Part shown: in pieces, positions 5,505 to 24,790 of the stretch
Layout of the letters: each line of letters opens with the position of its first letter
How positions within the stretch are numbered: the first letter of the stretch is position 1
Notes under the pieces: model-generated
What the model saw: only the letters and a program-made list of their open reading frames with translations
The model's database searches: none
What the model was told of the DNA's origin: nothing
Program-made: the position numbers and the translations under genes
Source of the DNA: Escherichia coli
Lineage (GTDB): Bacteria > Pseudomonadota > Gammaproteobacteria > Enterobacterales > Enterobacteriaceae
Assembly: GCF_036507355.1 (NCBI RefSeq)
Contig: NZ_AP027877.1
Length of the DNA stretch: 64,000 nt
Direction: 5' to 3' (one strand)

Positions 5505-6260
5505 TTGAGTGCGGGACGCCTGAATAAAAAATCTCTGGGTATCGTGATGTTGTTATCGGTTGGACTGCTTTTGGCGGGCTGTTCGGGTAGCAAATCATCC
5601 GATACAGGAACGTATTCCGGCTCCGTTTACACCGTGAAACGGGGGGATACGCTATATCGTATTTCGCGCACCACGGGAACCAGCGTAAAAGAACTGGCGC
5701 GACTGAACGGCATTTCCCCCCCTTACACTATTGAAGTAGGTCAGAAACTAAAACTGGGTGGGGCGAAAAGTAGCAGTAGTACACGTAAATCAACCGCCAA
5801 ATCAACGACTAAAACCGCATCGGTTACACCGTCATCAGCGGTACCGAAATCTTCCTGGCCGCCAGTAGGGCAACGTTGTTGGTTATGGCCAACGACAGGG
5901 AAAGTTATCATGCCGTATTCGACAGCAGATGGCGGCAATAAAGGGATTGATATCTCAGCTCCACGGGGTACACCTATTTACGCCGCGGGTGCAGGAAAGG
6001 TGGTGTATGTGGGCAACCAGCTGCGTGGCTACGGTAATCTCATCATGATTAAACACAGTGAAGATTACATTACGGCTTACGCCCATAATGACACGATGCT
6101 GGTAAATAATGGGCAAAGCGTGAGGGCTGGGCAAAAAATCGCCACCATGGGGAGCACGGATGCGGCATCTGTTCGCCTGCATTTCCAGATTCGTTACCGT
6201 GCAACGGCAATTGATCCGCTACGTTACTTGCCGCCGCAGGGCAGCAAGCCAAAATGCTGA
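5505..6260 (+). CDS. ygeR: LysM/peptidase M23 lipoprotein YgeR
   Basis: Probable TTG start at 5505 preceded by GAGGA (the track ORF starts at an upstream ATG at 5481); lipobox LLAGC, LysM segment (YTVKRGDTLYRISR) and C-terminal M23 domain; located immediately upstream of glyU. Confidence 0.85.
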   Translation: MSAGRLNKKSLGIVMLLSVGLLLAGCSGSKSSDTGTYSGSVYTVKRGDTLYRISRTTGTSVKELARLNGISPPYTIEVGQKLKLGGAKSSSSTRKSTAKSTTKTASVTPSSAVPKSSWPPVGQRCWLWPTTGKVIMPYSTADGGNKGIDISAPRGTPIYAAGAGKVVYVGNQLRGYGNLIMIKHSEDYITAYAHNDTMLVNNGQSVRAGQKIATMGSTDAASVRLHFQIRYRATAIDPLRYLPPQGSKPKC

Positions 6261-6338: not shown

Positions 6339-6412
6339 GCGGGCGTAGTTCAATGGTAGAACGAGAGCTTCCCAAGCTCTATACGAGGGTTCGATTCCCT
6401 TCGCCCGCTCCA
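6339..6412 (+). tRNA. glyU: tRNA-Gly (anticodon CCC)
   Basis: 74-nt sequence GCGGGCGTAGTTCAATGGTAGAACGAGAGCTTCCCAAGCTCTATACGAGGGTTCGATTCCCTTCGCCCGCTCCA with cloverleaf and CCC anticodon. Confidence 0.97.
6390..6412 (+). repeat. attL core: 3' end of glyU (23 bp), direct repeat of 10585-10607
   Basis: TTCGATTCCCTTCGCCCGCTCCA occurs identically at 6390-6412 and 10585-10607. Confidence 0.85.
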
Positions 6413-6546
6413 TGACCTTTCTTAAAGTACTCCAACCTACTGAATCCTAAGGGATACGGCTTTAAGCCTTCCGCTAGTTTTACTCACTGTAACCAACACT
6501 GTAACTAAATTTGTTGAAATAGTGAGCAGACTTAAGATCTCAGTAC

Positions 6547-8178
6547 ATGCTCAACTCAAAAACCTATCTTTATCAGCGCAATGGCGTCTTTTATATCCGC
6601 CTCAGGATGAAGTCCACAGATCGCCTGACCGTTTCACATCCTTCCCATAGCCGTTATAAAATAGCGTCAGTATCACTACGGACTAAGGATAGACGTACAG
6701 CTATGGCTTACTCACGGCAAATCAAGGCAGCACTTAGGGCAATCCATGCAGACAGACCCAACGCCTCCTATGAGGAAATGAGGGAACACCTGAGGGACAT
6801 CGCAGAGTGGGAGTTGTCTACAGGTCGTTCAGACCTCTTCGAGCCAGATATGAGAGATCTATACCGTGACCAGTATGGGGAAGTGGGAGAGAATCTTGTC
6901 CATGCTCTGGCAAGCGAGCCACTGACTATTGACCAGCATCGCTATATTAATGAGGCTCTTAATGTACTCAAGGCCTGCATGAAGCGCATTGAAGCGGGAG
7001 ATAGCCAGCCACTTATAGATTATATAGATGGATTTGATGCTGCTGCTGGGGCTAATGGCCAAGCCTCTGCAACTCTATCTGTTAGTGCTCCCCAAAAAAC
7101 AAGCATTACTGAAGGCAAACACTGCGTAACCGTTGCTTCTCTCTTTGAGCAGTACGAGCAGGAAAACGCCCAGAACTGGAAGCCAGCAACATTACGAGAA
7201 AACAAAGCTTCTCATGCTGCGTTAATCGAAGTTTTTGATTATCTGGGCCTCAATGCTGACGCCAATGTGTTAGCTCGTGCGGATATGCTTAGGGTTCGGG
7301 ATATCCTCCAGCAATTGCCGAAGAATCGTAAGCAGCGTTTCAAAGATGTTCCGTTGGTTGACCTGCTAGGTCGTGAGGATAAAACCGATTGTCTGGATAT
7401 TGTTACCATCAATAATAAATATCTCATTAAGATGGCGGCTGTTTTCAAGTGGGCCGTGCGTAATGACCTGATTAAAAAGAATATGACAGAAGGGCTAGAG
7501 CTTAAGGTTCCCCAGCGTAAAGCCTCTGAGGCGCGTAATGCTTTCTCTACGGAGCAGGTAGGACAACTACTGGCTGCCGCCCAAGTTTACTCACAGAGAC
7601 CTTCTGGTAAGCCGTATCATTATTATGTTACCGCCTTGGCTGCTATCACTGGGGCGAGACTCAATGAAATAGCCCAACTACAGGTCAAAGACGTCAGGAC
7701 CACTGAGGCGGGAACCGTTTATATTCATATCAATGAAGACGATAGTAGTCTACCCGGTAAGAGCATCAAGAACGCTCATAGTGACCGCTGTGTGCCTCTG
7801 GTCGATGGGGCCTATGGTTTTATATTGGCTGACTTTATGAGGTTGGTTGAGACCCGTAGAGGCGCTGATGGTGATGACGCTATGGTGTTCGATGGTCTTC
7901 GCCTCATGAAGAACGGTTACGGTGAGCAGGTGAGTAAATGGTTTAATCGGACGTTGTTGCCTAAAGTCCTCGCAGACCGTAGCGGCTTAGCGTTTCACTC
8001 GTTTAGACATACAGTTGCGACCCAGTTAAAACAACATGGGGTCGAGTTGGCGTATGCACAGGCGATCATGGGGCATAGTTCAGGGTCTATTACTTACGAC
8101 CGTTATGCTAAAGAGGTTGAGGTTGATAGACTGGTCAATGTGATGGCTGATGTTTATAAGGAGGTTGTGGCCCCTTAA
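6547..8178 (+). CDS. tyrosine-type integrase (543 aa, extended N-terminal region)
   Basis: C-terminal catalytic motifs ARLNEI (Arg), HSFRHTVAT (H-x-x-R), GHSSGSITYDRYAK (Tyr); first gene after the tRNA att core. Confidence 0.85.
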   Translation: MLNSKTYLYQRNGVFYIRLRMKSTDRLTVSHPSHSRYKIASVSLRTKDRRTAMAYSRQIKAALRAIHADRPNASYEEMREHLRDIAEWELSTGRSDLFEPDMRDLYRDQYGEVGENLVHALASEPLTIDQHRYINEALNVLKACMKRIEAGDSQPLIDYIDGFDAAAGANGQASATLSVSAPQKTSITEGKHCVTVASLFEQYEQENAQNWKPATLRENKASHAALIEVFDYLGLNADANVLARADMLRVRDILQQLPKNRKQRFKDVPLVDLLGREDKTDCLDIVTINNKYLIKMAAVFKWAVRNDLIKKNMTEGLELKVPQRKASEARNAFSTEQVGQLLAAAQVYSQRPSGKPYHYYVTALAAITGARLNEIAQLQVKDVRTTEAGTVYIHINEDDSSLPGKSIKNAHSDRCVPLVDGAYGFILADFMRLVETRRGADGDDAMVFDGLRLMKNGYGEQVSKWFNRTLLPKVLADRSGLAFHSFRHTVATQLKQHGVELAYAQAIMGHSSGSITYDRYAKEVEVDRLVNVMADVYKEVVAP

Positions 8179-8179
8179 G

Positions 8180-8234
8180 GATGACCATAGGCGATGACCA
8201 TAGGCGATGACCATAGGCGATGACACTTGCTACT
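8180..8234 (+). repeat. tandem 13-bp iterons (GATGACCATAGGC x3 plus a variant GATGACACTTGCTACT)
   Basis: Three perfect head-to-tail copies starting one base after the integrase stop; the variant unit recurs at about 8391-8410. Confidence 0.8.
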
Positions 8235-8293
8235 ATTCCTATGGTCCCCTTTGTGGTCCTATGTGGTCCTGTGTGACCCTTTGTGTGGTCATG
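8235..8293 (+). repeat. cluster of TGGTCC/TGTGGTC short repeats
   Basis: ATTCCTATGGTCCCCTTTGTGGTCCTATGTGGTCCTGTGTGACCCTTTGTGTGGTCATG: about five degenerate copies of one motif. Confidence 0.7.
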
Positions 8294-8330
8294 TTTTGAC
8301 TCATAGTTTTCACTACTTGTCAAGCATATT

Positions 8331-8353
8331 TAATACGACTCACTATAGGGAGA
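8331..8353 (+). promoter_or_regulatory. bacteriophage T7 RNA polymerase promoter (exact 23-bp class III consensus)
   Basis: TAATACGACTCACTATAGGGAGA read directly, predicted +1 G at 8348; followed by a TCTCTCTCTGTCTCTCTC tract. Confidence 0.85.
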
Positions 8354-8584
8354 AGGGACACAAAAAGTTTTCTCTCTCTGTCTCTCTCTATGATGACACT
8401 TGCTACTACTTCAGGTAGCTTTAACTCTAACCGTAACTTATCGCATCCTTTCAGGGGCGGGATGACCAATTACAGACACCAAGCGTTCTACTTAAAATGA
8501 ATGCTTCCTGTGTGCTCTGGGTCAGTCGATAAGTGAATAGCCTTAGACATCATATTAATTATGGTCTCTAACCCCTACAGGGGC

Positions 8585-8729
8585 TTAACTTTAAGTATTA
8601 ACTTATAGTCTACTTAAAGACACAATTAAAGATTAACTTAAAGTATTAAATTATAGATTAATTAAAGACCAATTAAAGAGTAACTTTAAGTATTAACTTA
8701 TAGTCTACTTAAAGACACAATTAAAGATT
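8585..8729 (+). repeat. AT-rich iteron array with two ~48-bp direct repeats (TTAAAGA/TTAAAGAC units)
   Basis: AACTTTAAGTATTAACTTATAGTCTACTTAAAGACACAATTAAAGATT at about 8587-8634 and 8682-8729; preceded by CCCCTACAGGGG at about 8570. Confidence 0.8.
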
Positions 8730-8920
8730 GACTCTAAGGGAATACCTTAAGAGGTGATGATATTCATAATAATCAATCACCAAACCTATAGGTCTCCTCA
8801 AGGCATTACCCAGAAGCTAACTGTATGGCCCTGTATGGTCCTGTACGCCATTCTTTAGGATGCCATGTAGTTTCGTATGGCCTGATGCCTAGCGTGGCTC
8901 AGAGACCCTCCCAGTAGTAA

Positions 8921-8945
8921 ATCAATACGACTTACTAATAGGAGA
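8921..8945 (+). promoter_or_regulatory. degenerate T7-like promoter (putative)
   Basis: CAATACGACTTACTAATAGGAGACA: 18 of 23 positions match the T7 consensus, same orientation, about 230 bp upstream of the 9158 ORF. Confidence 0.45.
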
Positions 8946-9157
8946 CACACTCCGAACCACTCACCACGTGTCTCTCAAAGTTCCACCTCTCGCGCTTCAC
9001 CATACAGTAGCTCCGCACAGCTACGACACAATCATTCATTCAATCTCAAAGTCATTCTGTTTGCATCCTGTTGTCCTGCTGGTCTCCCTTCGCTTGGGGA
9101 CTTTGAGTGGGCCAGTAGGGGGCGGTTTAGTGTGCATATTTAAAAGGTAACCAAGCA

Positions 9158-9721
9158 ATGAACAATAAACATAAACATGCAGGTCATATTATCACTATTG
9201 AAGGCCACAGCTTTAAGTCTAATGAGTCTGGCATGTGGAATCTTACAGAAATATGGAAAATCCTCGGATTACCTAACAATAAGCTACCCTCTCAGTGGCG
9301 CGGCAAGGTAACAAAGAGGCTCACCGACATGCAAAAAATGCACGTCGAGAAGATTGGTATTGAAAGCATAACCTACGCAGACAAACAGGCTACCCTCAAG
9401 TATGCAGGATGGGTCTCTGAAGATTTCGAGGACATGGTCTATGCAGCCTTTGAGGCTATCCTTGAGATGCCTGAAGTTGCCACGGTCGTTGCTAATAAGA
9501 TGGTCGAACTTGGCTATCACGCTGAAGCTGAGCTATTGGAACGTCATAAGGACGACTATAGAGAAGCTATGCAGACCCTTAAAAAGATTGGTAAACGTGT
9601 TGACGGCAGGAAGCCTGAGCGCATCTACAAGGCCGTACTTAACGGTAATCTGACGAAATTTCAAGGGTTATCCATGATTTCTCGCAGCAGTGTCTGGTAC
9701 GCCCGAACAGTGAATCTATGA
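9158..9721 (+). CDS. hypothetical protein, possible KilA-N-like N-terminal domain
   Basis: 187-aa ORF with AAGGTAA upstream; N-terminal IITIEGHSFKSNESGMWNLTEIWKILG...AGWVSEDFEDMVYAAF is reminiscent of KilA-N/APSES-type domains (tentative, from recall). Confidence 0.5.
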   Translation: MNNKHKHAGHIITIEGHSFKSNESGMWNLTEIWKILGLPNNKLPSQWRGKVTKRLTDMQKMHVEKIGIESITYADKQATLKYAGWVSEDFEDMVYAAFEAILEMPEVATVVANKMVELGYHAEAELLERHKDDYREAMQTLKKIGKRVDGRKPERIYKAVLNGNLTKFQGLSMISRSSVWYARTVNL

Positions 9722-9844
9722 TGGCTATCGATCACGATAGATGCCAGCGATCAATTTCAGGTTACCGATCGAAACAAACGATCAGCACGATGGTTGCAAT
9801 CGGATATCATATTGACACTTGTCTGACATCCTGAAGGTATCAAT

Positions 9845-10318
9845 ATGTTTGGGCTTTTTAAGAAAAAGGCAAAAGCGGAAAGGTGTTATGATGTAACACG
9901 CATTCAATACGAGCTGGTTGTAATGTCATCTAAGCTGATAAAAAAACAGACCGATATGTTCAAAGTAATAAAAGGGGAGCGAGAGGAGGCTTTAGGAGAC
10001 CCTTTATTATCAGCAGGGTATATAACGCCATGGGTCATTGGATATTGCACTGGTCTCCTGGATGCAGTGACTCAGACGGAGGCTAACAGGATGGCATTTA
10101 CATCAGAAATGCTTGGGCTTCTTTTTGCTGCAGTTTTCGGTGATGATAAGTCTCTTGAGGCCATGGGAACTTATATAGCCTGTAACGAAGCCTCCTCACC
10201 AGACCATGGATTTCATGTTACGTATGAGCTTTATATGTCTGGTCTAGCGAAAGCGTTTAATGAGGTATGTGAGGATAAACCTGCGATAGGACTTCTGAAC
10301 TATTTAATGCAGGATTGA
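9845..10318 (+). CDS. hypothetical protein (157 aa)
   Basis: ORF with no recognisable motifs; TTGACA at about 9810 upstream; last ORF before attR. Confidence 0.45.
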   Translation: MFGLFKKKAKAERCYDVTRIQYELVVMSSKLIKKQTDMFKVIKGEREEALGDPLLSAGYITPWVIGYCTGLLDAVTQTEANRMAFTSEMLGLLFAAVFGDDKSLEAMGTYIACNEASSPDHGFHVTYELYMSGLAKAFNEVCEDKPAIGLLNYLMQD

Positions 10319-10584
10319 AAATTTCCCACAAAAATCTCAGTGCCTATCTAACAGTAATAACCCTGCAACATTCCCCCGTATACCTCCAGAAGTTATCCAG
10401 AAGCCGAAGTAGGTATCCTGTCATGTATTTGAATCATCAAAGTTGTTCGTTCTATTCCTCTTTAGGGAATATTACAGCCCTACAGCCTTGACCAGAGATC
10501 ACTTGATGTGTAACCATAACTGTAACCAAAAGGATTCATCATCCTTTAAGAAACAATTGGTTAGTGAGTGATTGTCTTCGATAC

Positions 10585-10607
10585 TTCGATTCCCTTCGCC
10601 CGCTCCA
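10585..10607 (+). repeat. attR of the 4.2-kb element (also proximal att of the next islet)
   Basis: 23-bp copy of the glyU 3' end; flanking sequence diverges from the tRNA. Confidence 0.85.
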
Positions 10608-10771
10608 AACTCAAGTCTCCTGAAGTCTACCAAACTCAATTTTTCCTTGATAAATCAGCAGTTATAGCTTTCTATTAGTCTATTGAACTCAATTGTACTC
10701 CCCCAGGGTCAAGCTCAATGTGGGGGTATGGATGGGGGTATAATTGTACCCCCTGCTGAGAGGTACCCCCA

Positions 10772-11998
10772 ATGAAGCTGACTGCTCGTCAGGTTGAAAC
10801 TGCGAAACCCAAAGAGAAGCCCTACAAACTGGCCGATGGTGGTGGGCTTTACCTGCTGGTTAATCCCAACGGTAAAAGATACTGGCGTCTCAAATACCGT
10901 TCGTTAGGTAAAGAGAAGCTGCTCGCTATTGGCGTTTATCCCGATGTTTCTTTAGCTGAGGCCCGAAGTAAGCGTGAGGATGCTAAAAGAACATTAGCGG
11001 CTGGCAACGATCCCTCTCTTGAACGAAAAATTGAGAAACTTAGTCGTCAACAAGACGCTGAAAACTCGTTTGAGGCTATCACACGGGAGTGGTATCAGCG
11101 TCGCTATGACCGCTGGTCTGTCTCCTACCGCGAAGAAATGCTGAGAACCTTTGAGAAAGATGTATTTCCTTATATCGGTCACAGGCCAATCAAAGATATC
11201 AAGCCGATGGAGTTGCTTGCAGTTCTTTCAAAGATAGAAGCACGAGGGGCAACAGAGAAAGTCCGCAAGGTTCGTCAGCGTTGTGGAGAGGTCTGGAAGT
11301 ATGCCGTTGTGACTGGGAGGGCCGAGTACAATCCAGCACCTGATCTAGCCAGCGCCGTGAGTCCTCATGAGAAAGAGCACTATGCTTTTTTAACCCAGGA
11401 TGAATTGCCTGAGTTTCTTCGGACTCTGAACGCCTATGCCGGTAGTGTGCTTGTTAAGATTGCGATGCAATTGCTCATTTTAACAGGAGTAAGGCCAGGG
11501 GAGTTGAGGCAAGCGGAGTGGCAGGAGTTTGATTTTGAGAAAAAGGTTTGGAATGTACCAGCGGAACGTATGAAAATGCGCCGCCCTCATCTTGTTCCAT
11601 TATCAAGCCAGGCAATTGACCTGCTTAATCAACTTAAACCCATAACGGGAGCAGGAGCGTTATTATTCCCAGGACGTAATAATCCTAAGAAACCGATGAG
11701 CGATATGGCATTGACTGTGTTGGTCAGGCGTATCGGCTATGCCGGGCGCGTTACAGGGCATGGATTCCGCCACACGATGAGTACCATTTTGCATGAGCAG
11801 GGATTCAACTCGGCCTGGATTGAGTTACAGCTGGCTCACGTCGATAAGAACTCAATTCGTGGGACGTATAACCATGCTCAATATTTGGAAGGTCGGCGGG
11901 AGATGATGCAGTGGTATGGAGATTTCATCGGTCAAGCAGGCAAATCCGGATCATCGCTAGCTTATGCAGCTATTAGCTTGACTGCTGAATTAGAGTGA
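10772..11998 (+). CDS. P4-type tyrosine integrase
   Basis: 408-aa ORF; N-terminus MKLTARQVETAKPKEKPYKLADGGGLYLLVNPNGKRYWRLKY typical of P4-family integrases; HGFRHT and Y-containing C-terminal box; sits 165 bp after the tRNA-derived repeat. Confidence 0.9.
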   Translation: MKLTARQVETAKPKEKPYKLADGGGLYLLVNPNGKRYWRLKYRSLGKEKLLAIGVYPDVSLAEARSKREDAKRTLAAGNDPSLERKIEKLSRQQDAENSFEAITREWYQRRYDRWSVSYREEMLRTFEKDVFPYIGHRPIKDIKPMELLAVLSKIEARGATEKVRKVRQRCGEVWKYAVVTGRAEYNPAPDLASAVSPHEKEHYAFLTQDELPEFLRTLNAYAGSVLVKIAMQLLILTGVRPGELRQAEWQEFDFEKKVWNVPAERMKMRRPHLVPLSSQAIDLLNQLKPITGAGALLFPGRNNPKKPMSDMALTVLVRRIGYAGRVTGHGFRHTMSTILHEQGFNSAWIELQLAHVDKNSIRGTYNHAQYLEGRREMMQWYGDFIGQAGKSGSSLAYAAISLTAELE

Positions 11999-12008
11999 GA
12001 AGGGGCAA

Positions 12009-12056
12009 GTTGAGCCTCTTCGCTGAGAAGAGGCTCAACGTGAACCTATTTTTTTG
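12009..12056 (+). terminator. intrinsic terminator after integrase
   Basis: GTTGAGCCTCTTC-GCTG-AGAAGAGGCTCAAC hairpin followed by a T7 run. Confidence 0.7.
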
Positions 12057-12153
12057 GGAGTTAATACTTTTTGCAATTTTTTTTTTCGTGCCGTTGGATG
12101 TAAAGATCTGTGGGGGTTAGGGAAGAAAATCATGCTATGTTAGTCTTTGAGGA

Positions 12154-13131
12154 GTGAGTCAAAATGTTATAACTTTTTCAAAGAGGCGTTACATCGTGAA
12201 AGTCGTTTTTAATGTTAATGGTAAAAAAGTTCCGCTCAAATCTCTGCAATATATAAGTAAAGCAAATCAACTCGAAGTTATGCGGAATTGGTTTTTTGAG
12301 AATTTTGAAGATCCCGCGAACTCTTGCCCGTATGAATCCCGTGAAGGCGGGTATGCTTACATTTATGGGGGCCCATACGAAGCAAGTGAAGAGTTGCAAG
12401 CGATGTTTGAAGGACACGTGAAATTTGATTATATCCAAGAATTAGTCAATGAATTACAAGAACAGTGCTATGAATGGTCTGGTAATTCAAATAATATTAA
12501 TGATTGGTACGATGAAGACTTGTATGATGCTGTTACATCTTCTGAACATCCTTTTTCTAAGTTCGTTGAAAGCATTGATGGAATAAAATTGCTGTCTAAA
12601 GGCGAATTTAAAGATAAACAAAAAGATCATCTGCTTAGCATCCTATATATTAATGTCATTACAGCCCTGGAAACACTTTATGTTGAGTTATTTATTAACT
12701 CTATAGATAAAAACGACTCATATCTTGCTGACTTTATAGAAAAAGGTAAGACGGAATTTAAGGTAAATAAAGGAATATTGGCTTTGCCATTCAAAGGAGA
12801 AACTATTGAAAACATGAGGGCGCAATTAATTAAGGTAATTAAAGAGCATTTGATTAGTGCAAGTTGGCATAGTACAAACAAAGTTGTAGGACGTTATAAA
12901 GCTACATTTGATATAAAAGTACATAAAGAGTGGCCAATAGATGTGATCGAAATAGCAACTCAAAAGCGTAATCATTTAGTCCATCGTGGCGGGAAAGATA
13001 AAGAAGGTAATTCGGTAGTGATTACTGAACAGGATTTAGAAATGTTGCTGGATCACGCACAATCTCTTGGAGAAAAATTGTTTGATAGCCTTGAGGTGGC
13101 ATTACAGAAAAAAGATGAGAATGAATTTTGA
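12154..13131 (+). CDS. hypothetical protein with C-terminal HEPN-like R-x4-H motif (putative abortive-infection protein)
   Basis: 325-aa ORF; C-terminal KRNHLVHRGG fits the HEPN R-x(4-6)-H signature; AT-rich gene inside an integrase islet. Confidence 0.5.
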   Translation: MSQNVITFSKRRYIVKVVFNVNGKKVPLKSLQYISKANQLEVMRNWFFENFEDPANSCPYESREGGYAYIYGGPYEASEELQAMFEGHVKFDYIQELVNELQEQCYEWSGNSNNINDWYDEDLYDAVTSSEHPFSKFVESIDGIKLLSKGEFKDKQKDHLLSILYINVITALETLYVELFINSIDKNDSYLADFIEKGKTEFKVNKGILALPFKGETIENMRAQLIKVIKEHLISASWHSTNKVVGRYKATFDIKVHKEWPIDVIEIATQKRNHLVHRGGKDKEGNSVVITEQDLEMLLDHAQSLGEKLFDSLEVALQKKDENEF

Positions 13132-13182
13132 GTCTCGGGGTAGGTTGATAGTGCTACCGATAACGAGCAAGCAAATGATACT

Positions 13183-13202
13183 CGGCAGGCAGTGCCTGCC
13201 GG
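13183..13202. terminator. bidirectional hairpin between convergent genes
   Basis: CCGGCAGGCA-G-TGCCTGCCGG perfect inverted repeat between the 13131 and 13207 stop codons. Confidence 0.55.
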
Positions 13203-13206
13203 AGGA

Positions 13207-14910
13207 TTACTTTTTACTTCCAAATTGAATGCCGAGAAGTTTATTCTCTGCTTTATCGCCACGTAGAGTAAGAACAATTTTTGATTTCAGTTCTAACATT
13301 TCGATTTCAGATAAAGTTGTTTCCATAGCATTAAAGTTTTCAGTGTTTAAAGATGCTATATATTGCTTTCCGCTTCGTTTTAATGACTGATTGACAAATG
13401 AGAACCATCTTGCGCGAACACCTGGATCTATATCAGCAAAAAGACGGTTATCATGCCATAGCATATCCATGGCATGGTTTTCACCACATGTAAATACTAA
13501 CCAGTCAAAGCATAATATCCTAGCATCATTGATCCCATCCGAATCATCACCCTCGATTTGGATGCTTAGATCATAACGAATTTTGTTGTCACCAGTATTA
13601 ACATCCAAAACTATTCCTGCTGGTACCCTTGGGTACATTATTTCTGCGAGCTCAGCAAAAATTTTATCGTATTCTGAAAGAGGATTTGTAGAAGCATAGT
13701 TTACCGCTAATCTGTCTTGTTCAACTTTTCGTTCTCTTAGATTTTGAGCTTTCTGTTGAAGGTTAATAGAAAAATTTAAATAATCATGTAACCTTTCTTT
13801 TTCTTCTTTAAATTCAGCTAGTTGTCTAGCTATGACTGCGTATTCATCAAATGCTTTCTTGCCTTGCAGGGATTCCAAATATGAATCACGTAATGCTGAA
13901 ATATCCTTAATGTCAATTTTAAGAGATTCAATTTCTAACAAAAGTTTTACTTTATCATTTTCAAGTCTTTTCTTTCTGTTAAAAGATAATGATTTGTGAA
14001 AATTTTCAACTGACTCAAAATGGGCCAATGTTTCTGGCTTGAAAATCTCTTGTAAGCCATTGTACAGTTCAAGAAGCTCTTCTCTTGAAATGTCAGGGTG
14101 TTCTAATAAAGTTTTTTCTATATTATTTACTTTAAATTCAGCTATATTTTTGTTTTTTTCAACTTCTCGTAATTTTATAGTTAAACTGTTTGTTTCATTC
14201 TCAATAGCTCTGTATTGCTCGTGAACTTGAAATGCATTCAGTTCATCCTGCAGTCTTGGGATCTCTCTTTCTAGCCACTCATAGCGTACTTTAGGTTGAG
14301 AGCCTGCTCTAAACATGTCTTTTAGAATATCATCGTCTTGCCAATTTTTTAGCGATTGACTTACTTTATCCAGCTCTTGCTTATTATTTCTTTTAGATAA
14401 TATTAAATTATGATCTATACCGAGAAGAAATGCGGTACGAAGCAATGCTTCAAAGTCTTGCTCCTTTTTTGTCCTAGTTGGACTGATGCAGTCATCTCTG
14501 GTATATCGCGAAAAACGCTTAAATAAAGATCTGAATGATAAATACGGAATGTTATTCTCAAGATTAAATATTCCTATTTTATCTAATAAATCTTTAAATG
14601 CTTTTAAAGATATTGTTTTGTCATTTAATAATAATTTTTTTCCATTGCCCGTTCTAGATATTAAGTACTCAACTCCATTATGAGAAAAAAGTAAAGAGAA
14701 CCACCAATCTGGAACTGCTGAAGTTAATTTTTTATCAGCATTAGCTCCTAAACAATGTTGAATGAGACCGAGAATAAGTGTCTTACCGACTCCGTTACTA
14801 CTGCCTTCTTTTTCTTTAGAGCTATCACCAATGATCAACGTTAGTCCTGTATCATTGAAATGCACTGGATGAAAAGTTGGCTGATCGCAAGTTAAGCGAA
14901 TTAACTTCAT
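13207..14910 (-). CDS. SMC/ABC-type P-loop ATPase with long coiled-coil region (putative anti-phage ATPase)
   Basis: 567-aa ORF; Walker A GSSNGVGKT near the N-terminus; long K/E-rich heptad-like middle; start codon abuts the stop of the upstream 101-aa gene. Confidence 0.65.
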   Translation of the reverse strand: MKLIRLTCDQPTFHPVHFNDTGLTLIIGDSSKEKEGSSNGVGKTLILGLIQHCLGANADKKLTSAVPDWWFSLLFSHNGVEYLISRTGNGKKLLLNDKTISLKAFKDLLDKIGIFNLENNIPYLSFRSLFKRFSRYTRDDCISPTRTKKEQDFEALLRTAFLLGIDHNLILSKRNNKQELDKVSQSLKNWQDDDILKDMFRAGSQPKVRYEWLEREIPRLQDELNAFQVHEQYRAIENETNSLTIKLREVEKNKNIAEFKVNNIEKTLLEHPDISREELLELYNGLQEIFKPETLAHFESVENFHKSLSFNRKKRLENDKVKLLLEIESLKIDIKDISALRDSYLESLQGKKAFDEYAVIARQLAEFKEEKERLHDYLNFSINLQQKAQNLRERKVEQDRLAVNYASTNPLSEYDKIFAELAEIMYPRVPAGIVLDVNTGDNKIRYDLSIQIEGDDSDGINDARILCFDWLVFTCGENHAMDMLWHDNRLFADIDPGVRARWFSFVNQSLKRSGKQYIASLNTENFNAMETTLSEIEMLELKSKIVLTLRGDKAENKLLGIQFGSKK

Positions 14911-16730: not shown

Positions 16731-17093
16731 ATGAAAAAGTTAACGGTGTTTGACCCGGCAATGTGCTGCAGTACCGGCGTATGTGGCTCAGATGTCGATC
16801 AGGTTCTGGTTGATTTTTCTGCTGATGTGCAGTGGCTGAAAGGACGTGGCGTACAGGTTGAACGTTACAACCTGGCGCAGCAGCCCATGAGCTTTGTTCA
16901 AAATGAGAAAGCGAAAGCATTCCTCGAAGCATCTGGAGCAGAAGGGCTTCCGTTACTGCTGTTGGACGGTGAAACGGTGATGGCAGGGCGATACCCAAAA
17001 CGCGCTGAGCTGGCTCGCTGGTTCGGTATACCGCTGGAGAAGGTAGGTTTAGCTCCCACCAGCTGCTGTGGTGGTAATACTTCCTGTTGCTGA
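16731..17093 (+). CDS. arsD: arsenical metallochaperone ArsD
   Basis: ATG at 16731 with GAGGTG SD; MKKLTVFDPAMCCSTGVCG with conserved Cys12/13/18. Confidence 0.9.
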   Translation: MKKLTVFDPAMCCSTGVCGSDVDQVLVDFSADVQWLKGRGVQVERYNLAQQPMSFVQNEKAKAFLEASGAEGLPLLLLDGETVMAGRYPKRAELARWFGIPLEKVGLAPTSCCGGNTSCC

Positions 17094-17110
17094 GTATGTC
17101 AGGAGGACAT

Positions 17111-18862
17111 ATGAAATTCTTACAGAATATCCCGCCTTACCTGTTTTTTACCGGTAAGGGAGGTGTAGGAAAAACTTCTATTTCCTGCGCGACGGCAATC
17201 CGCCTTGCTGAACAGGGTAAGCGGGTTTTGCTGGTCAGTACCGATCCGGCCTCCAATGTCGGCCAGGTATTCGATCAGGCTATCGGTAACACCATTCGCC
17301 CTGTGGCAGCAGTTCCTGAACTTTCCGCTCTGGAAATCGACCCGCAGGAAGCCGCCAAACAATATCGTTCCAGAATCGTTGCTCCTATCAAAGATCTTTT
17401 GCCTGATGACGTTGTTAACAGTATCAGCGAGCAGCTTTCAGGAGCCTGTACCACTGAGATTGCGGCGTTTGATGAGTTCACCGGCTTATTGACAGACGCT
17501 TCCCTGCTGACCCGCTTCGATCACATCATTTTTGATACAGCGCCGACGGGCCACACGATTCGCCTTCTCCAGCTTCCCGGTGCCTGGAGTAACTTCATTG
17601 AGAGTAACCCGGATGGTGCTTCCTGTCTTGGCCCAATGGCCGGACTGGAAAAGCAGCGTGAGCAGTATGCTCATGCGGTAGAGGCGTTATCCGATCCTGA
17701 ACGTACCCGCCTGGTTCTGGTTGCAAGACTGCAAAAATCCACGCTGCAGGAAGTCGCCCGCACCCATGAAGAACTCGCCGCAATTGGCCTGAAAAACCAG
17801 TACCTGGTGATTAATGGTGTGCTGCCTAAAGCCGAAGCTGAACATGACGCCCTGGCCGCTGCGATATGGCAACGTGAACAGGAGGCACTGGCAAATCTTC
17901 CTGCCGGTTTATCCGGGTTGCCGACAGATACCCTATTACTACAGCCAGTCAATATGGTTGGTGTTTCAGCATTGAAGGGACTGCTGGATACCCGTTCTGA
18001 GGCATTACCGCTCCCGGTAACGAACATCCAGTACACGCCTGAAAACATATCGCTCTCTGGCCTGGTCAATGATATCGCCCGCAGTGAACACGGCCTGATT
18101 ATGCTGATGGGCAAAGGTGGCGTGGGTAAAACCACGATGGCTGCTGCCATCGCCGTAAGGCTGGCGGATATGGGATTTGATGTCCATCTCACCACCTCAG
18201 ATCCCGCTGCACATCTCAGTACCACGCTGAACGGTAGCCTTAATAACCTGCAGGTCAGCAGGATTAATCCACACGAAGAAACCGAACGCTATCGCCAGCA
18301 TGTTCTTGAGACGAAGGGTAAAGATCTGGACGAAGCAGGGAAACGGCTACTGGAAGAGGATTTGCGCTCTCCCTGTACTGAAGAAATTGCCGTGTTTCAG
18401 GCCTTTTCCAGGGTGATTCGTGAAGCGGGTAAACGGTTTGTTGTCATAGATACCGCCCCTACCGGACACACGCTGTTGCTGCTGGATGCGACCGGGGCTT
18501 ACCACCGAGAGATTGCCAAAAAAATGGGGAGTAAAGGTCATTTTACTACCCCAATGATGCAGCTTCAGGATCCGGATAGAACCAAAGTTCTGCTTGTTAC
18601 GCTTCCTGAAACCACACCGGTTCTGGAAGTGGCAAACCTGCAGGCTGACCTTGAAAGAGCGGGGATTCATCCGTGGGGCTGGATTATCAATAACAGCCTT
18701 TCCATTGCGGATACGCGTTCTCCGTTGCTTTGCCAGCGCGCCCGGCAGGAACGGCCTCAGATTGAGGCTGTTAAGAATCAGCATGCTGAGCGTATAGCGC
18801 TTGTTCCGGTGCTGGCGTCAGAGCCCGCCGGTATTAAAAAGCTCAGAGAGTTGATGAGTTAA
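17111..18862 (+). CDS. arsA: arsenite-transporting ATPase ArsA
   Basis: ATG at 17111 after AGGAGG; two nucleotide-binding halves each with GKGGVGKT; about 583 aa. Confidence 0.92.
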
Positions 18863-18909: not shown

Positions 18910-20199
18910 ATGTTACTGGCAGGCGCTATTTTTGTCCTGACCATTGTTTTGGTTATCTGGCAACCAAAGGGATTAGGGATCGGCTGGAGTGCAATGCTGG
19001 GCGCGGGACTGGCTCTGATATCAGGCGTTGTGCATGTGGGCGATATTCCGGTGGTGTGGAATATCGTCTGGAACGCGACGGCGACCTTTATTGCCGTAAT
19101 TATTATCAGCCTGCTGCTTGATGAGTCCGGTTTTTTCGAATGGGCAGCGCTGCACGTTTCCCGCTGGGGTAACGGTCGTGGACGTTTGCTCTTTACGTAT
19201 ATCGTTCTGCTCGGTGCGGCGGTGGCGGCACTGTTTGCCAACGATGGTGCGGCACTTATTCTGACGCCGATAGTCATCGCCATGCTGCTGGCATTAGGGT
19301 TCAGCAAAGGCACCACGCTGGCATTCGTCATGGCTGCCGGTTTTATTGCCGATACGGCCAGCCTGCCGCTTATCGTGTCGAACCTGGTGAATATAGTCTC
19401 GGCGGACTTCTTTGGACTGGGCTTCACTGAGTATGCGTCGGTAATGGTGCCGGTGGATATTGCCGCTATTATCGCCACGCTGGTGATGCTGCATCTGTTC
19501 TTCCGCAAAGATATTCCACCGACTTACGACCTGGCTCTCCTGAAAGCACCGGCAAAGGCGATTAAAGATCTGGCAACCTTCAGAACCGGCTGGATAGTTT
19601 TAATTCTTCTGCTGGTTGGGTTCTTTGTCCTCGAGCCGCTCGGTATTCCCGTTAGCGCGATTGCGGCTGTTGGAGCTGTGATCCTGTTTGCTGTAGCTAA
19701 ACGAGGCCATGCCATTAACACCGGCAAAGTGCTGCGCGGTGCGCCATGGCAGATCGTCATCTTCTCATTGGGGATGTACCTGGTGGTCTACGGTCTGCGC
19801 AACGCCGGGCTAACCGAATACCTTTCAGGTGTGCTGAACGTACTGGCGTATAAAGGACTCTGGGCCGCAACGCTGGGTACTGGTTTCCTGACGGCTTTCC
19901 TCTCTTCCATCATGAACAACATGCCTACCGTGCTGGTTGGCGCTCTCTCGATCGATGGAAGCACCGCATCCGGCGTTATTAAAGAGGCGATGATCTACGC
20001 CAACGTGATTGGCTGCGATCTGGGGCCGAAAATTACACCTATTGGTAGCCTGGCAACGCTGCTCTGGCTGCATGTACTTTCACAGAAGAATATGACCATC
20101 ACCTGGGGATACTATTTCCGCACCGGGATCGTCATGACTCTGCCTGTGCTGTTTGTAACGCTGGCCGCGCTGGCGCTACGTCTCTCTTTCACTTTGTAA
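18910..20199 (+). CDS. arsB: arsenite efflux pump ArsB
   Basis: 429-aa polytopic membrane protein, ArsB family. Confidence 0.92.
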
Positions 20200-23812: not shown

Positions 23813-24790
23813 TCACTCTAATGCTTTTTGAGCAGCAAGTTCAAGTTCACTTTTTCCATGAAGTGCCAAAGACATATGGCATTCCGCTAGAAGGCAATAA
23901 CATTCTGTTTTTAGCGTCTGTATATCACTTTTATTTTGTAATCCATCAAATATAGTCATGGCCCTGTAAATGCTTTCAGGGGTGAACTCGTAAAGTTCTT
24001 TCTTTCCGGCTAACATTTCATCTGATAAATAATGATTCTTATATCCTTGGTCCTGCTTAGCTAATCTTACAGATCGTTCTGGTTTATGTACCGTTTGAAG
24101 GATATTATCTATAATAAATTGTGATGTATTATGTAGTTCATCAACAGGGAGATGATTACTGGCGATGAGGAAAAGGTTTTTAGCGTCGATCAACTCAATG
24201 TATAAAGTGTTCACTGCATTATTCTGGTTTATTCTTCCTGTAACGAAATAATCTGGCTTGAATCTGCTCAAGAATGAATTTTGAGATATGTGGTCATTAC
24301 AAAAATTTGTCGCAGCCATCGGATAGGTATAGAGACCATCGATTTTTTTATTTGAAATGATTTGTACTAATTCCTGATTAAGTATTAATGGATCCAGTGT
24401 ATTCAATGAAGTGGTGAAAGGGAATATAGCTATGGAATAGTCTGAAGTATTATCTTCATTAATTTTAGTTTTGAAAACCTGCCCGCTGAAACGATAACCT
24501 TTCCGGTAGATTGTTTCTATGCAGCGATCATAGCCAATTTTTTCAAAAATGCAGCGCAAAGAATAGATACATCTTGTCAGGGACTCGTCACTAACAATAA
24601 TATTTTTCCATACTGATTCGATGATCATATCTTTCAGTACAACATGACCAGCGGATTCAAGTAATACTATTAATACACCTAACTCTTTCGGTGGAATATA
24701 AACTTGCTCATTTCCTTGAGTAAGAATTCCATCTTCCGTGAGCGTTAATCCCTCAAGAAAATGATATGAGAATTTATTTTCTAAGTCCAT
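23813..24790 (-). pseudogene. ygeH: ygeH-like HilA/ToxR-type regulator (ETT2), 3'-truncated by the IS3-family element
   Basis: 325 aa with N-terminal winged-helix region; the reading frame stops on the TGA that is the first triplet of the IS terminus; K-12 YgeH is about 458 aa (recall). Confidence 0.65.

Follow-up and report, generated by a model that had tools for sequence, protein, structure and literature searches.

An exact T7 promoter in a small tRNA-Gly island of Escherichia coli and its relatives in Enterobacterales: evidence for a possible phage-dependent element

The stretch of Escherichia coli chromosome analysed here, which we call the window, covers 64,000 nucleotides (contig NZ_AP027877.1 of assembly GCF_036507355.1). 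It contains a 4.2-kb island, lying between 23-bp repeats at a tRNA-Gly(CCC) gene, in which an exact consensus promoter for T7 RNA polymerase precedes two cargo genes. We think, with a probability of about 0.6, that this 23-mer is genuinely a promoter read by the RNA polymerase of T7-type phages, and that the island is one of a set of small elements in Enterobacterales that need virulent T7-like (Studiervirinae) phages and probably act as their parasites or interfere with them. A satellite or interference element that would be triggered by the phage RNA polymerase is, at this level of confidence, the best reading of the comparative data. The island is made of an integrase gene, a 979-bp noncoding region (8179–9157), a KilA-N gene and a gene for a 157-amino-acid protein, and to judge from its relatives it is a minimal member of the family.

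The promoter and its occurrence in nature

The 23-mer at 8331–8353, TAATACGACTCACTATAGGGAGA, is the sole site in the window within three mismatches of the T7 consensus; none of 100 dinucleotide shuffles contained a promoter match, and chance would not be expected to produce it. Six promoters of T7 itself (phi6.5, phi9, phi10, phi13, phi17 and phiOR) have this very sequence, which is aimed here at two open reading frames of the same strand, 9158–9721 and 9845–10318. No convincing sigma-70 promoter was found upstream of these cargo genes, nor any terminator between the T7 promoter and the cargo, and a tblastn search with T7 RNA polymerase and 12 other T7 proteins gave no homologue in the window. 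An earlier note on this DNA had claimed a perfect 23-bp class III match, unaccompanied by any single-subunit RNA polymerase in the window and pointing toward two cargo genes of an integrative element. All of this holds, the element being recognised by the tRNA-Gly(CCC), a perfect 23-bp repeat and a tyrosine integrase.

Few phages have been studied as thoroughly as T7, whose promoter is usually considered orthogonal to E. coli; the exact promoter is natural in about 1% of complete E. coli genomes, with host-matched equivalents in Klebsiella, Yersinia, Serratia and Pectobacterium. In numbers, the promoter with its 16-nt leader occurs in 57 of 5,426 E. coli genomes, always in the chromosome and never annotated, 35 of the 5,426 have no less than 80% of the island at the same tRNA-Gly locus, and the noncoding region is matched, at 60–100% identity, in 350. 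The carriers come from surface water, pigs, poultry, pigeons, humans and giant panda, and strains available from public collections include K. pneumoniae ATCC 13883 as well as E. coli NCTC10973 and NCTC9967, whose noncoding region is 99.8–99.9% identical to that of the window. Among about 100,000 species genomes, one per species, the 23-mer has four occurrences: an island of Klebsiella pneumoniae ATCC 13883, two small contigs with a pUC origin and one 548-bp fragment. The pUC-origin contigs, of about 5.3 kb, are part of the Pseudoalteromonas caenipelagi and Proteiniclasticum aestuarii assemblies (L010 and L012) and look like cloning-vector contamination; the 548-bp contig, which was grouped with them (L011), is from Pseudomonas schmalbachii. 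None of nine vector marks, including lacO, the T7 terminator, bla, kanR, the pUC origin and the M13, SP6 and T3 primer sites, is present in the window, and the flanking DNA has no blastn match in phage and plasmid collections. The missing vector marks and the recurrence of the island across many independent genomes rule out a vector or contamination origin, in agreement with the opinion of the earlier note that the promoter was not a cloning artefact.

Related islands were found in Escherichia, Klebsiella, Yersinia, Serratia and Pectobacterium. They share a layout in which the integrase is followed by a noncoding module of about 1 kb with promoters, a block of about 115 nt, a region of 21% GC and usually a further promoter; on these comparisons, module and integrase are taken as the family's conserved core. 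Of 22 copies in the E. coli-type variants, 20 have the exact 23-mer, inside a noncoding region that is 77–95% identical and next to six upstream nucleotides that vary freely. The copies stand single, doubled with a 118-bp unit or tripled with a unit of about 120 bp, which means that promoter dosage varies between otherwise similar islands. The repeated unit comprises the promoter and about 95 nt around it (L005 4228–4368, L006, L015, L016 and L018; L007 628–907; L008 5588–5867).

The Klebsiella island has the same 23-bp att sequence and an integrase 79% identical to that of the window at the DNA level. At the equivalent place it carries an array formed by AATTAGGGCACACTATAGGGGGA, the T7 23-mer and AATTAGGGCACACTATAGGGAGA, the last being the exact annotated phi9/phi10/phi13 promoter of Klebsiella phage K11. 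A metagenome scan with the conserved block gave 22 further members, in which phage-type promoters lie 60–230 nt before the block at 21 of the 21 loci with upstream sequence; many of these members have another promoter 310–400 nt past it. The promoters are T7-only, K11-only, mixed K11+T7+K11, T7/T3 hybrid (TAATACGACTCACTAAAGGGAGA) or other variants. One variant seen repeatedly, AATTAGGTAGCACTATAGGGAGA, has matches in 248 Klebsiella phages with genomes of about 40 kb, KP32 included, at 11–12 sites per genome, and the promoter of the Pectobacterium island, AATTAACCCTCACTATAGGGAGA, has its best match in the T7-like Pectobacterium phages MA6 and MA1A. Sorted by host, the promoters are of T7 type in E. 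coli, of mixed K11, KP32 and T7 type in Klebsiella, and a T3/T7 hybrid in Pectobacterium. The Yersinia and Serratia islands have further variants at the same position; these two and the Pectobacterium island were found via the capsid gene described below.

The information content of 47 distinct promoter instances is about 0 bits in the flanks and 1.3–2.0 bits from −7 to +6, and only 0.5–0.7 bits at −12, −10 and −8, which are positions that set polymerase specificity among T7, T3 and K11. Part of the height inside the 23-mer stems from the choice of the instances by similarity to consensus sequences; the sharp edges of the profile and the pattern of variable positions do not. To judge from such patterns, the promoter is under selection and tracks the local phages.

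The noncoding module and the genes of the islands

Downstream of the promoter lies the block of about 115 nt, which is nearly identical among the E. coli, Yersinia and Klebsiella islands and thus more conserved than the integrase gene. It is also present in the Serratia islands, and other positions are L013 7250–7359, L041 4499–4612 and L044 5762–5881. RNAalifold predicts 20 pairs, one of them compensatory (U-A in seven sequences, C-G in five). The predicted helices, ACTYATC/GATRAGT and GATGACC/GGTCAGTC, are long-range and pair the invariant halves of the block around a central hairpin that is kept despite its lineage-specific sequence. Single-sequence folds have a common architecture with modest z values (−0.6 to −2.4 in six of seven, +0.09 in Serratia), and no Rfam family other than tRNA matched the island, the block included. 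We consider the block a candidate structured RNA or DNA element, and it may be a new RNA that is produced only in phage infection.

The following AT-rich region, where GC falls to 21% against 42–48% elsewhere, bears some resemblance to the origin DNA of phages. In T7, the primary origin is formed by phi1.1A and phi1.1B plus an AT-rich region with primase sites. The island likewise has a promoter, AT-rich DNA, primase sites and common motifs, such as TTAACTTTAAG and AATTAAAGA(T/A)TTA; it differs in that its promoter and AT-rich region are about 230 nt apart. Each AT-rich repeat is 85% identical over 33 nt to K11 5828–5860, just past phi1.05, and with nhmmer the element positions 413–879 align with the K11 region from phiOR to the right end (E 1.2e-5), the aligned part including the hairpin at 8753–8781. 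When both promoter sites were removed, the best score was 15.8 bits, with no match in 60 dinucleotide shuffles. A weak match (E 0.03) also links the noncoding region of the Klebsiella island with the AT-rich stretch of the T7 primary origin. These likenesses were detected, weakly, with nhmmer and short-word blastn; standard blastn of the noncoding region against phage genomes at E 1e-5 gave no match. T7 primase pentamers are six-fold enriched (24 observed vs 4.1 ± 2.0), in counts that are not independent because the sites sit in repeated units, and each unit of the first iteron array holds GACCA, the complement of the T7 primase site TGGTC. Farther downstream, the degenerate promoter-like site at 8919–8945 has AAATCAATACGACT in common with T7 phi1.1A, and its place is taken in the Klebsiella relatives by a KP32-type variant or by a promoter of exact K11 type. 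The leader before the first cargo gene is kept although the genes downstream are unrelated between E. coli and Klebsiella. With a promoter, AT-rich DNA and primase sites, parts that origins of the T7 group also have, the module could be called origin-like, on weak evidence.

The genes around the module were mapped at 27 loci, where the order is integrase, RAZR (15 of 27), noncoding module, a phage-type DNA-binding protein and variable genes. RAZR, a protein of about 210 amino acids with a zinc finger and DUF4145 (HEPN), is the published PD-T7-4 system; the L013 protein matches its PADLOC model with E 8e-99, and L017 has it as well. It is an abortive-infection HEPN RNase that protects from T3 and T7, its trigger being the portal ring of the phage (PMC13017515). 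Vassallo et al. remarked that PD-T7-4 "often overlaps an integrase gene" (PMC9519451), which is explained by the position of RAZR, with the integrase on one side and the promoter module on the other. Only 5 nt separate the RAZR stop codon from the start of the T7 promoter in E. coli 13P484A. The window has no RAZR gene. The DNA-binding proteins that come first after the module are of the KilA-N, Rha, Ant-like and Bro-N kinds, which are mutually non-homologous; the idea of one first cargo gene common to all variants was rejected for this reason.

The commonest cargo of the Klebsiella type, which one E. coli island has as well, consists of a DUF6971 protein and, after it, a protein of about 380 amino acids (cluster c2, for example L013 9402–10610). 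The latter had no match in sequence searches of Pfam, PHROGs, NCBIfam and the Protein Data Bank (PDB). Its structural model has a mean predicted local distance difference test (pLDDT) of 61 and a predicted template modelling score of 0.61. In Foldseek, almost every one of the top 50 matches in PDB and in BFVD is a capsid, head or encapsulin protein, with probability 1.0 and E values down to 3e-11, the remaining BFVD matches being unnamed viral entries; the capsids of the T7-like phages PhiM1, Kp9 and HRP29 are among the matches. On the basis of this model, the c2 protein of the relatives is assigned as an HK97-fold major capsid protein. It has no sequence similarity to T7 gp10, and its homologues are found in Klebsiella, Serratia, Pectobacterium, Yersinia and Lonsdalea. 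Besides, a Yersinia enterocolitica island of about 12 kb (L041, HF933424.1) encodes a full-length T7 gp16 homologue of 1365 amino acids, 43% identical over 1,389 columns. There, at 9503–14534, the homologue of this internal virion protein is followed by an HNH endonuclease, and no other T7 structural gene is present. No remnant of an RNA polymerase, DNA polymerase, portal or terminase was found in the eight family loci searched.

In the copy of the window, the first cargo protein also matches PHROG 129, "transcriptional regulator" (E 7.8e-10), close variants of it are named "KilA-N domain-containing protein" in RefSeq, and it has a weak match to PADLOC PD-T4-2_B (E 1.3e-4). The 157-amino-acid protein has no match in Pfam, PHROG, PADLOC or NCBIfam, and its AlphaFold2 (AF2) model is too poor for a fold search; homologues occur in E. 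coli, Pectobacterium, Yersinia and Morganella. The pair recurs in Yersinia (with RAZR), Pectobacterium and Morganella, which argues for a conserved alternative cargo and not for debris.

Possible mechanism, alternatives and known systems

In an uninfected cell, the module downstream of the integrase would be largely silent, because no good sigma-70 promoter precedes the cargo. During infection by a T7-type phage, the phage RNA polymerase would be made while the host enzyme is shut off, and initiation would take place at 8348. According to the T7 annotation, gp0.7 and gp2 inactivate the host RNA polymerase, so a promoter for the phage enzyme would be one of the few routes to expression late in infection. 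The phage polymerase would transcribe the block of about 115 nt, the AT-rich repeats and then the KilA-N and 157-amino-acid genes, and, if the T7 origin is a guide, this transcription may also supply the primers with which the phage replisome would replicate the island. In the larger relatives, the module would drive the capsid protein, the DUF6971 protein in scaffold position and sometimes the gp16 homologue. Those that bear a capsid gene probably make or alter virions, which is satellite behaviour, and many relatives have in addition, a short way upstream of the module, the gene of the constitutive anti-T7 RNase RAZR. What the data show is the anatomy of the sequence, its distribution, the agreement of promoter type with host-specific phages and the identities of the cargo; transcription by phage RNA polymerase, replication, excision and packaging, as well as the roles of the two cargo proteins, are what we infer.

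The capsid, scaffold-position and gp16 genes of the relatives point to a satellite lifestyle, and RAZR with the variable cargo points to interference with the helper; in known satellites both roles coexist. The copy without capsid may either still be mobilised, for instance as concatemers in helper capsids like the PICMIs of Vibrionaceae (phage-inducible chromosomal minimalist islands), or be only a triggered defence. The earlier note had proposed a natural satellite, a hitchhiker or a module triggered by phage RNA polymerase. The support for it is comparative and comes from the natural isolates, the exact promoter amid variable flanks, the host-matched promoters and the capsid, gp16 and RAZR genes of the relatives.

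Several results weigh against such a phage-dependent element. The attP junction has no match in IMG/VR, and the conserved block is found there in only three contigs, which derive from isolate genomes; a free, circular or concatemeric island was not found in IMG/VR nor in the metagenome hits (chromosomal or short contigs), an absence that is no proof. Neither of the T7-type pac motifs, ATCTGTT and TCTCAYAG, occurs in the noncoding region of any of the six family members checked. Genes for a capsid, a scaffold-position protein or gp16 are missing in this copy, profile scans gave no recognisable replication or excision factor, and both of its cargo proteins are uncharacterised. The capsid model of the relatives is only of moderate confidence (pLDDT 61, TM scores 0.3–0.5), the likeness to phage origin DNA is weak (17.8 bits) and lies within AT-rich repetitive sequence, and the built-in part of the promoter profile and the dependence among primase-site counts count on the same side.

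A more far-reaching version, for which we would give somewhat less than even odds, is that the islands are satellites of virulent T7-like phages and form a hitherto overlooked family, which would be the first for this phage group. They would sense the helper through consensus promoters with multiplexed specificities, replicate from a transcription-primed origin of T7 type, form their own capsids in the larger forms and make the RNA of about 115 nt in infection only, the 4.2-kb copy being the minimal form.

The strongest competitor, though clearly the less probable one, is a pure anti-phage defence island that the phage never packages or transfers. In this case, the promoter would sense the RNA polymerase of T7-like phages and, only in its presence, switch on the KilA-N and 157-amino-acid proteins as effectors of abortive infection or interference, bypassing host shut-off, and the capsid-like and gp16-like proteins of the relatives would be assembly poisons. 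The presence at 15 of the 27 loci of RAZR/PD-T7-4, which is a validated anti-T7 system (PMC9519451, PMC13017515), agrees with it, as do a cargo as variable as that of defence hotspots, the PD-T4-2_B match of the KilA-N protein (weak, E 1.3e-4), and the lack of any packaged or excised form and of a T7-type pac signal among the sequences searched. However, RAZR lies upstream of the promoters and is thus not driven by them, and the iterons, the AT-rich origin-like region and the conserved block of the ~1-kb module exceed what a promoter switch needs. Moreover, capsid and scaffold-position genes stand in phage order, conserved across five genera, and an intact integrase with perfect att sites has spread over several genera.

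It is improbable that the island is the decayed prophage of a temperate T7-like phage, with promoters, AT-rich DNA, capsid and gp16 as functionless relics. Such an origin would account for the T7-like sequence features and the one gp16 homologue, and IS insertions and truncated copies do occur. Relics would decay, yet the 23-mer is exact in 20 of 22 copies beside variable flanks, promoter types are exchanged and multiplexed according to the host, and a compact architecture with perfect att sites recurs across genera; nor do the eight loci searched keep any polymerase, portal or terminase remnant, and the capsid protein lacks sequence similarity to that of T7. Finally, a laboratory artefact, with vector or T7 DNA contaminating or chimerically joined to the assembly, might be argued from the three small contigs that carry the 23-mer in other public genomes, two of them with a pUC origin, but the window is free of vector marks, the flanking DNA has no blastn match to phages or plasmids, an att-bounded island sits at one locus in dozens of independent complete genomes, and these distribution data already refute it, leaving a negligible chance.

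Compared to known satellites, the island is an integrated mobile element with its own integrase and att sites and without a full phage gene set, as is general for this class, and its dependence on a helper for activation would be implied by promoters that only a phage RNA polymerase reads and that match host-specific phages. PICMIs lie next to fis, have integrase, AlpA and primase as core genes and are packaged as 8-copy concatemers (PMC10803314). The island resembles them in its very small size (a PICMI has about 6 kb), few genes, proposed dependence on virulent phages and defence cargo (PMC10803314), and the copy of the window, like a PICMI, lacks capsid-remodelling genes. In contrast, the island family sits in tRNA-Gly, has the integrase as its only PICMI core gene (no AlpA or primase was found in the window) and carries promoters for phage RNA polymerase.

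In the P4 case, the Ogr protein of P2 activates late promoters of the satellite, whose genes are thus switched on by helper transcription machinery, and P4-like elements integrate at tRNA genes and carry defence hotspots. These three traits would be shared in kind by the island family, which differs in that P4 uses the host RNA polymerase with a helper activator, whereas the island would use a polymerase encoded by the helper. The P4 alpha primase-helicase, Sid, Psu and Delta have no PHROG or NCBIfam match in the window. The cf-PICIs have, like many relatives of the island, their own HK97-fold capsid protein; they are of 10–15 kb and also encode portal, terminase, protease and head-tail connectors. 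The island relatives, by difference, have only the capsid and DUF6971 genes, with or without gp16, and the window copy has none of these. From the PICI/cf-PICI core (repressor/AlpA, primase-replicase, terS or capsid-portal-terminase), the window has only the integrase, and the relatives have no portal or terminase.

Besides the T7 replication origins, the plasmid-transduction system reportedly described by Chung & Hinkle (1990) can be compared; here the island family differs in that the concatemer-junction signals required for T7 packaging were not found in the six members checked. Such a junction consists of a terminal repeat with TCTCAYAG at its left end and the ATCTGTT pause signal after the repeat. 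A possible mimic of it in the window, given by a CT-rich tract (8368–8389) and "CTCATAG" at 8300, was rejected, the tract being deleted in the variants L004–L006 and both motifs missing from the six members. As for the RAZR system, it is encoded within the island family, directly between integrase and promoter module, and the window copy differs in having no RAZR gene. In the published work RAZR figures as a system of one gene, and the island, its promoters and its other genes go unmentioned (PMC9519451, PMC13017515).

The literature covered, which left most subscription papers outside, so that a prior report is possible, gave no description of a chromosomal island with phage RNA polymerase promoters, nor of any satellite belonging to T7-like phages; within this scope, the impression of the earlier note that this is not a described system is borne out. 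We rate the islands as a new family, one of hitcher or satellite elements that depend on phages and sense their helper in a new way; this copy lacks the core gene set of each of the satellite families compared. If the inference is right, a mobile element would sense a virulent phage through the phage's own RNA polymerase, even past host shut-off. RAZR/PD-T7-4 can now be placed as an accessory gene of these islands. Therapy makes wide use of T7-like phages, for example the Klebsiella przondoviruses, so such islands could affect its efficacy or cause gene transfer. There may also be use in biotechnology for natural promoter arrays of several specificities and for the candidate infection-specific RNA.

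Features of the island and its surroundings

The features of the island are collected in Table 1. The sequence repeated at both ends, TTCGATTCCCTTCGCCCGCTCCA, is found also at the flanks of relatives in Klebsiella and in metagenome contigs, and no third copy within three mismatches is present in the window. From its position close to both att cores, the TGTAACC-type repeat probably provides the arm sites of the integrase. A dyad similar to that of the table, TTGACTATATGTCAA, precedes a promoter in the Klebsiella island.

Table 1. Positions of the island features in the window
Feature	Position	Strand	Remarks
tRNA-Gly(CCC), integration target, 3' end = attL	6339–6412	+	ARAGORN; Rfam tRNA 71.6 bits
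attL core, 23 bp, TTCGATTCCCTTCGCCCGCTCCA, last 23 bases of the tRNA	6390–6412		Perfect direct repeat with 10585–10607
Candidate integrase arm-type site (TGTAACCA..ACTGTAAC)	6488–6505	+	Direct repeat near attR at 10509–10526
Tyrosine integrase, 543 amino acids	6547–8178	+	PHROG 1 integrase E 2.6e-42; NCBIfam Xer-type matches
Iteron array (GATGACCATAGGC), three copies	8180–8218		3–11 copies among variants
Second iteron array (CTnTGTGGTCC), inverted relative to the first	8239–8282		Repeat family D2; copy number varies
Dyad TTGAC...GTCAA directly upstream of the promoter	8296–8323		Sequence
Exact T7 class III consensus promoter, TAATACGACTCACTATAGGGAGA	8331–8353	+	−17 to +6; predicted +1 at 8348
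Conserved block of ~115 nt	8427–8541	+	nhmmer matches in 39 loci
AT-rich region, 21% GC, three ~48-bp repeats of ACTTAAAG / AATTAAAGATTAAC motifs	8586–8738		Repeat family D1
Hairpin GGTGATGATATT...ATCACC	8753–8781	+	Like the hairpin downstream of phiOR in T7/K11; resemblance weak
Related iteron array (CTGTATGGYCC)	8821–8844		Copy number varies between strains
Degenerate phage-type promoter-like site, AAATCAATACGACTTACTAATAGGAGA	8919–8945	+	5 mismatches to consensus
Conserved leader before the first cargo gene	9025–9157	+	82% identical between E. coli and Klebsiella
Cargo gene 1, 187 amino acids, weak KilA-N DNA-binding match	9158–9721	+	Pfam KilA-N E 0.0027
Cargo gene 2, 157 amino acids, predicted all-helical	9845–10318	+	AF2 pLDDT 47 (low)
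attR core, same as attL	10585–10607		Likeness to other E. coli carriers stops here

The integrase, labelled "site-specific integrase" in RefSeq, is unusually long. Its recombinase profile matches begin near residue 194, the N-terminal part of about 190 amino acids (window 6547–7125) has no annotation, and the integrases of the relatives have 533–563 amino acids. In L007 and L009, two IMG/VR contigs from isolate genomes, a divergent island is placed beside tRNA-Gly(TCC), at the end of a Met-Arg-Thr-Gly tRNA cluster, and in the place of its cargo there are transposases of IS1 and IS3 and pieces of tail-fibre genes, a setting which indicates that a second tRNA-Gly site is open to the family and that its members can decay.

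The region of the E. coli chromosome in the window is flanked by recJ, actS and ygeH, the point of integration being the tRNA-Gly between actS and ygeQ. A second island follows in tandem directly after attR (10608 to about 23500) and ends before ygeH (23813–24790). It opens with a P4-type integrase (10772–11998), upstream of which, just outside attR, there is a G-rich near-palindrome, GGGGGTATGGATGGGGGTATAATTGTACCCCCTGCTGA (10700–10760), and an 18-bp direct repeat (10624–10641 and 10677–10694). The second island also carries a candidate defence protein on the minus strand (13207–14910; PADLOC PDC-M68B, E 8e-73), the arsenic-resistance genes arsA (17087–18862) and arsB (18910–20199), and an IS3 transposase.

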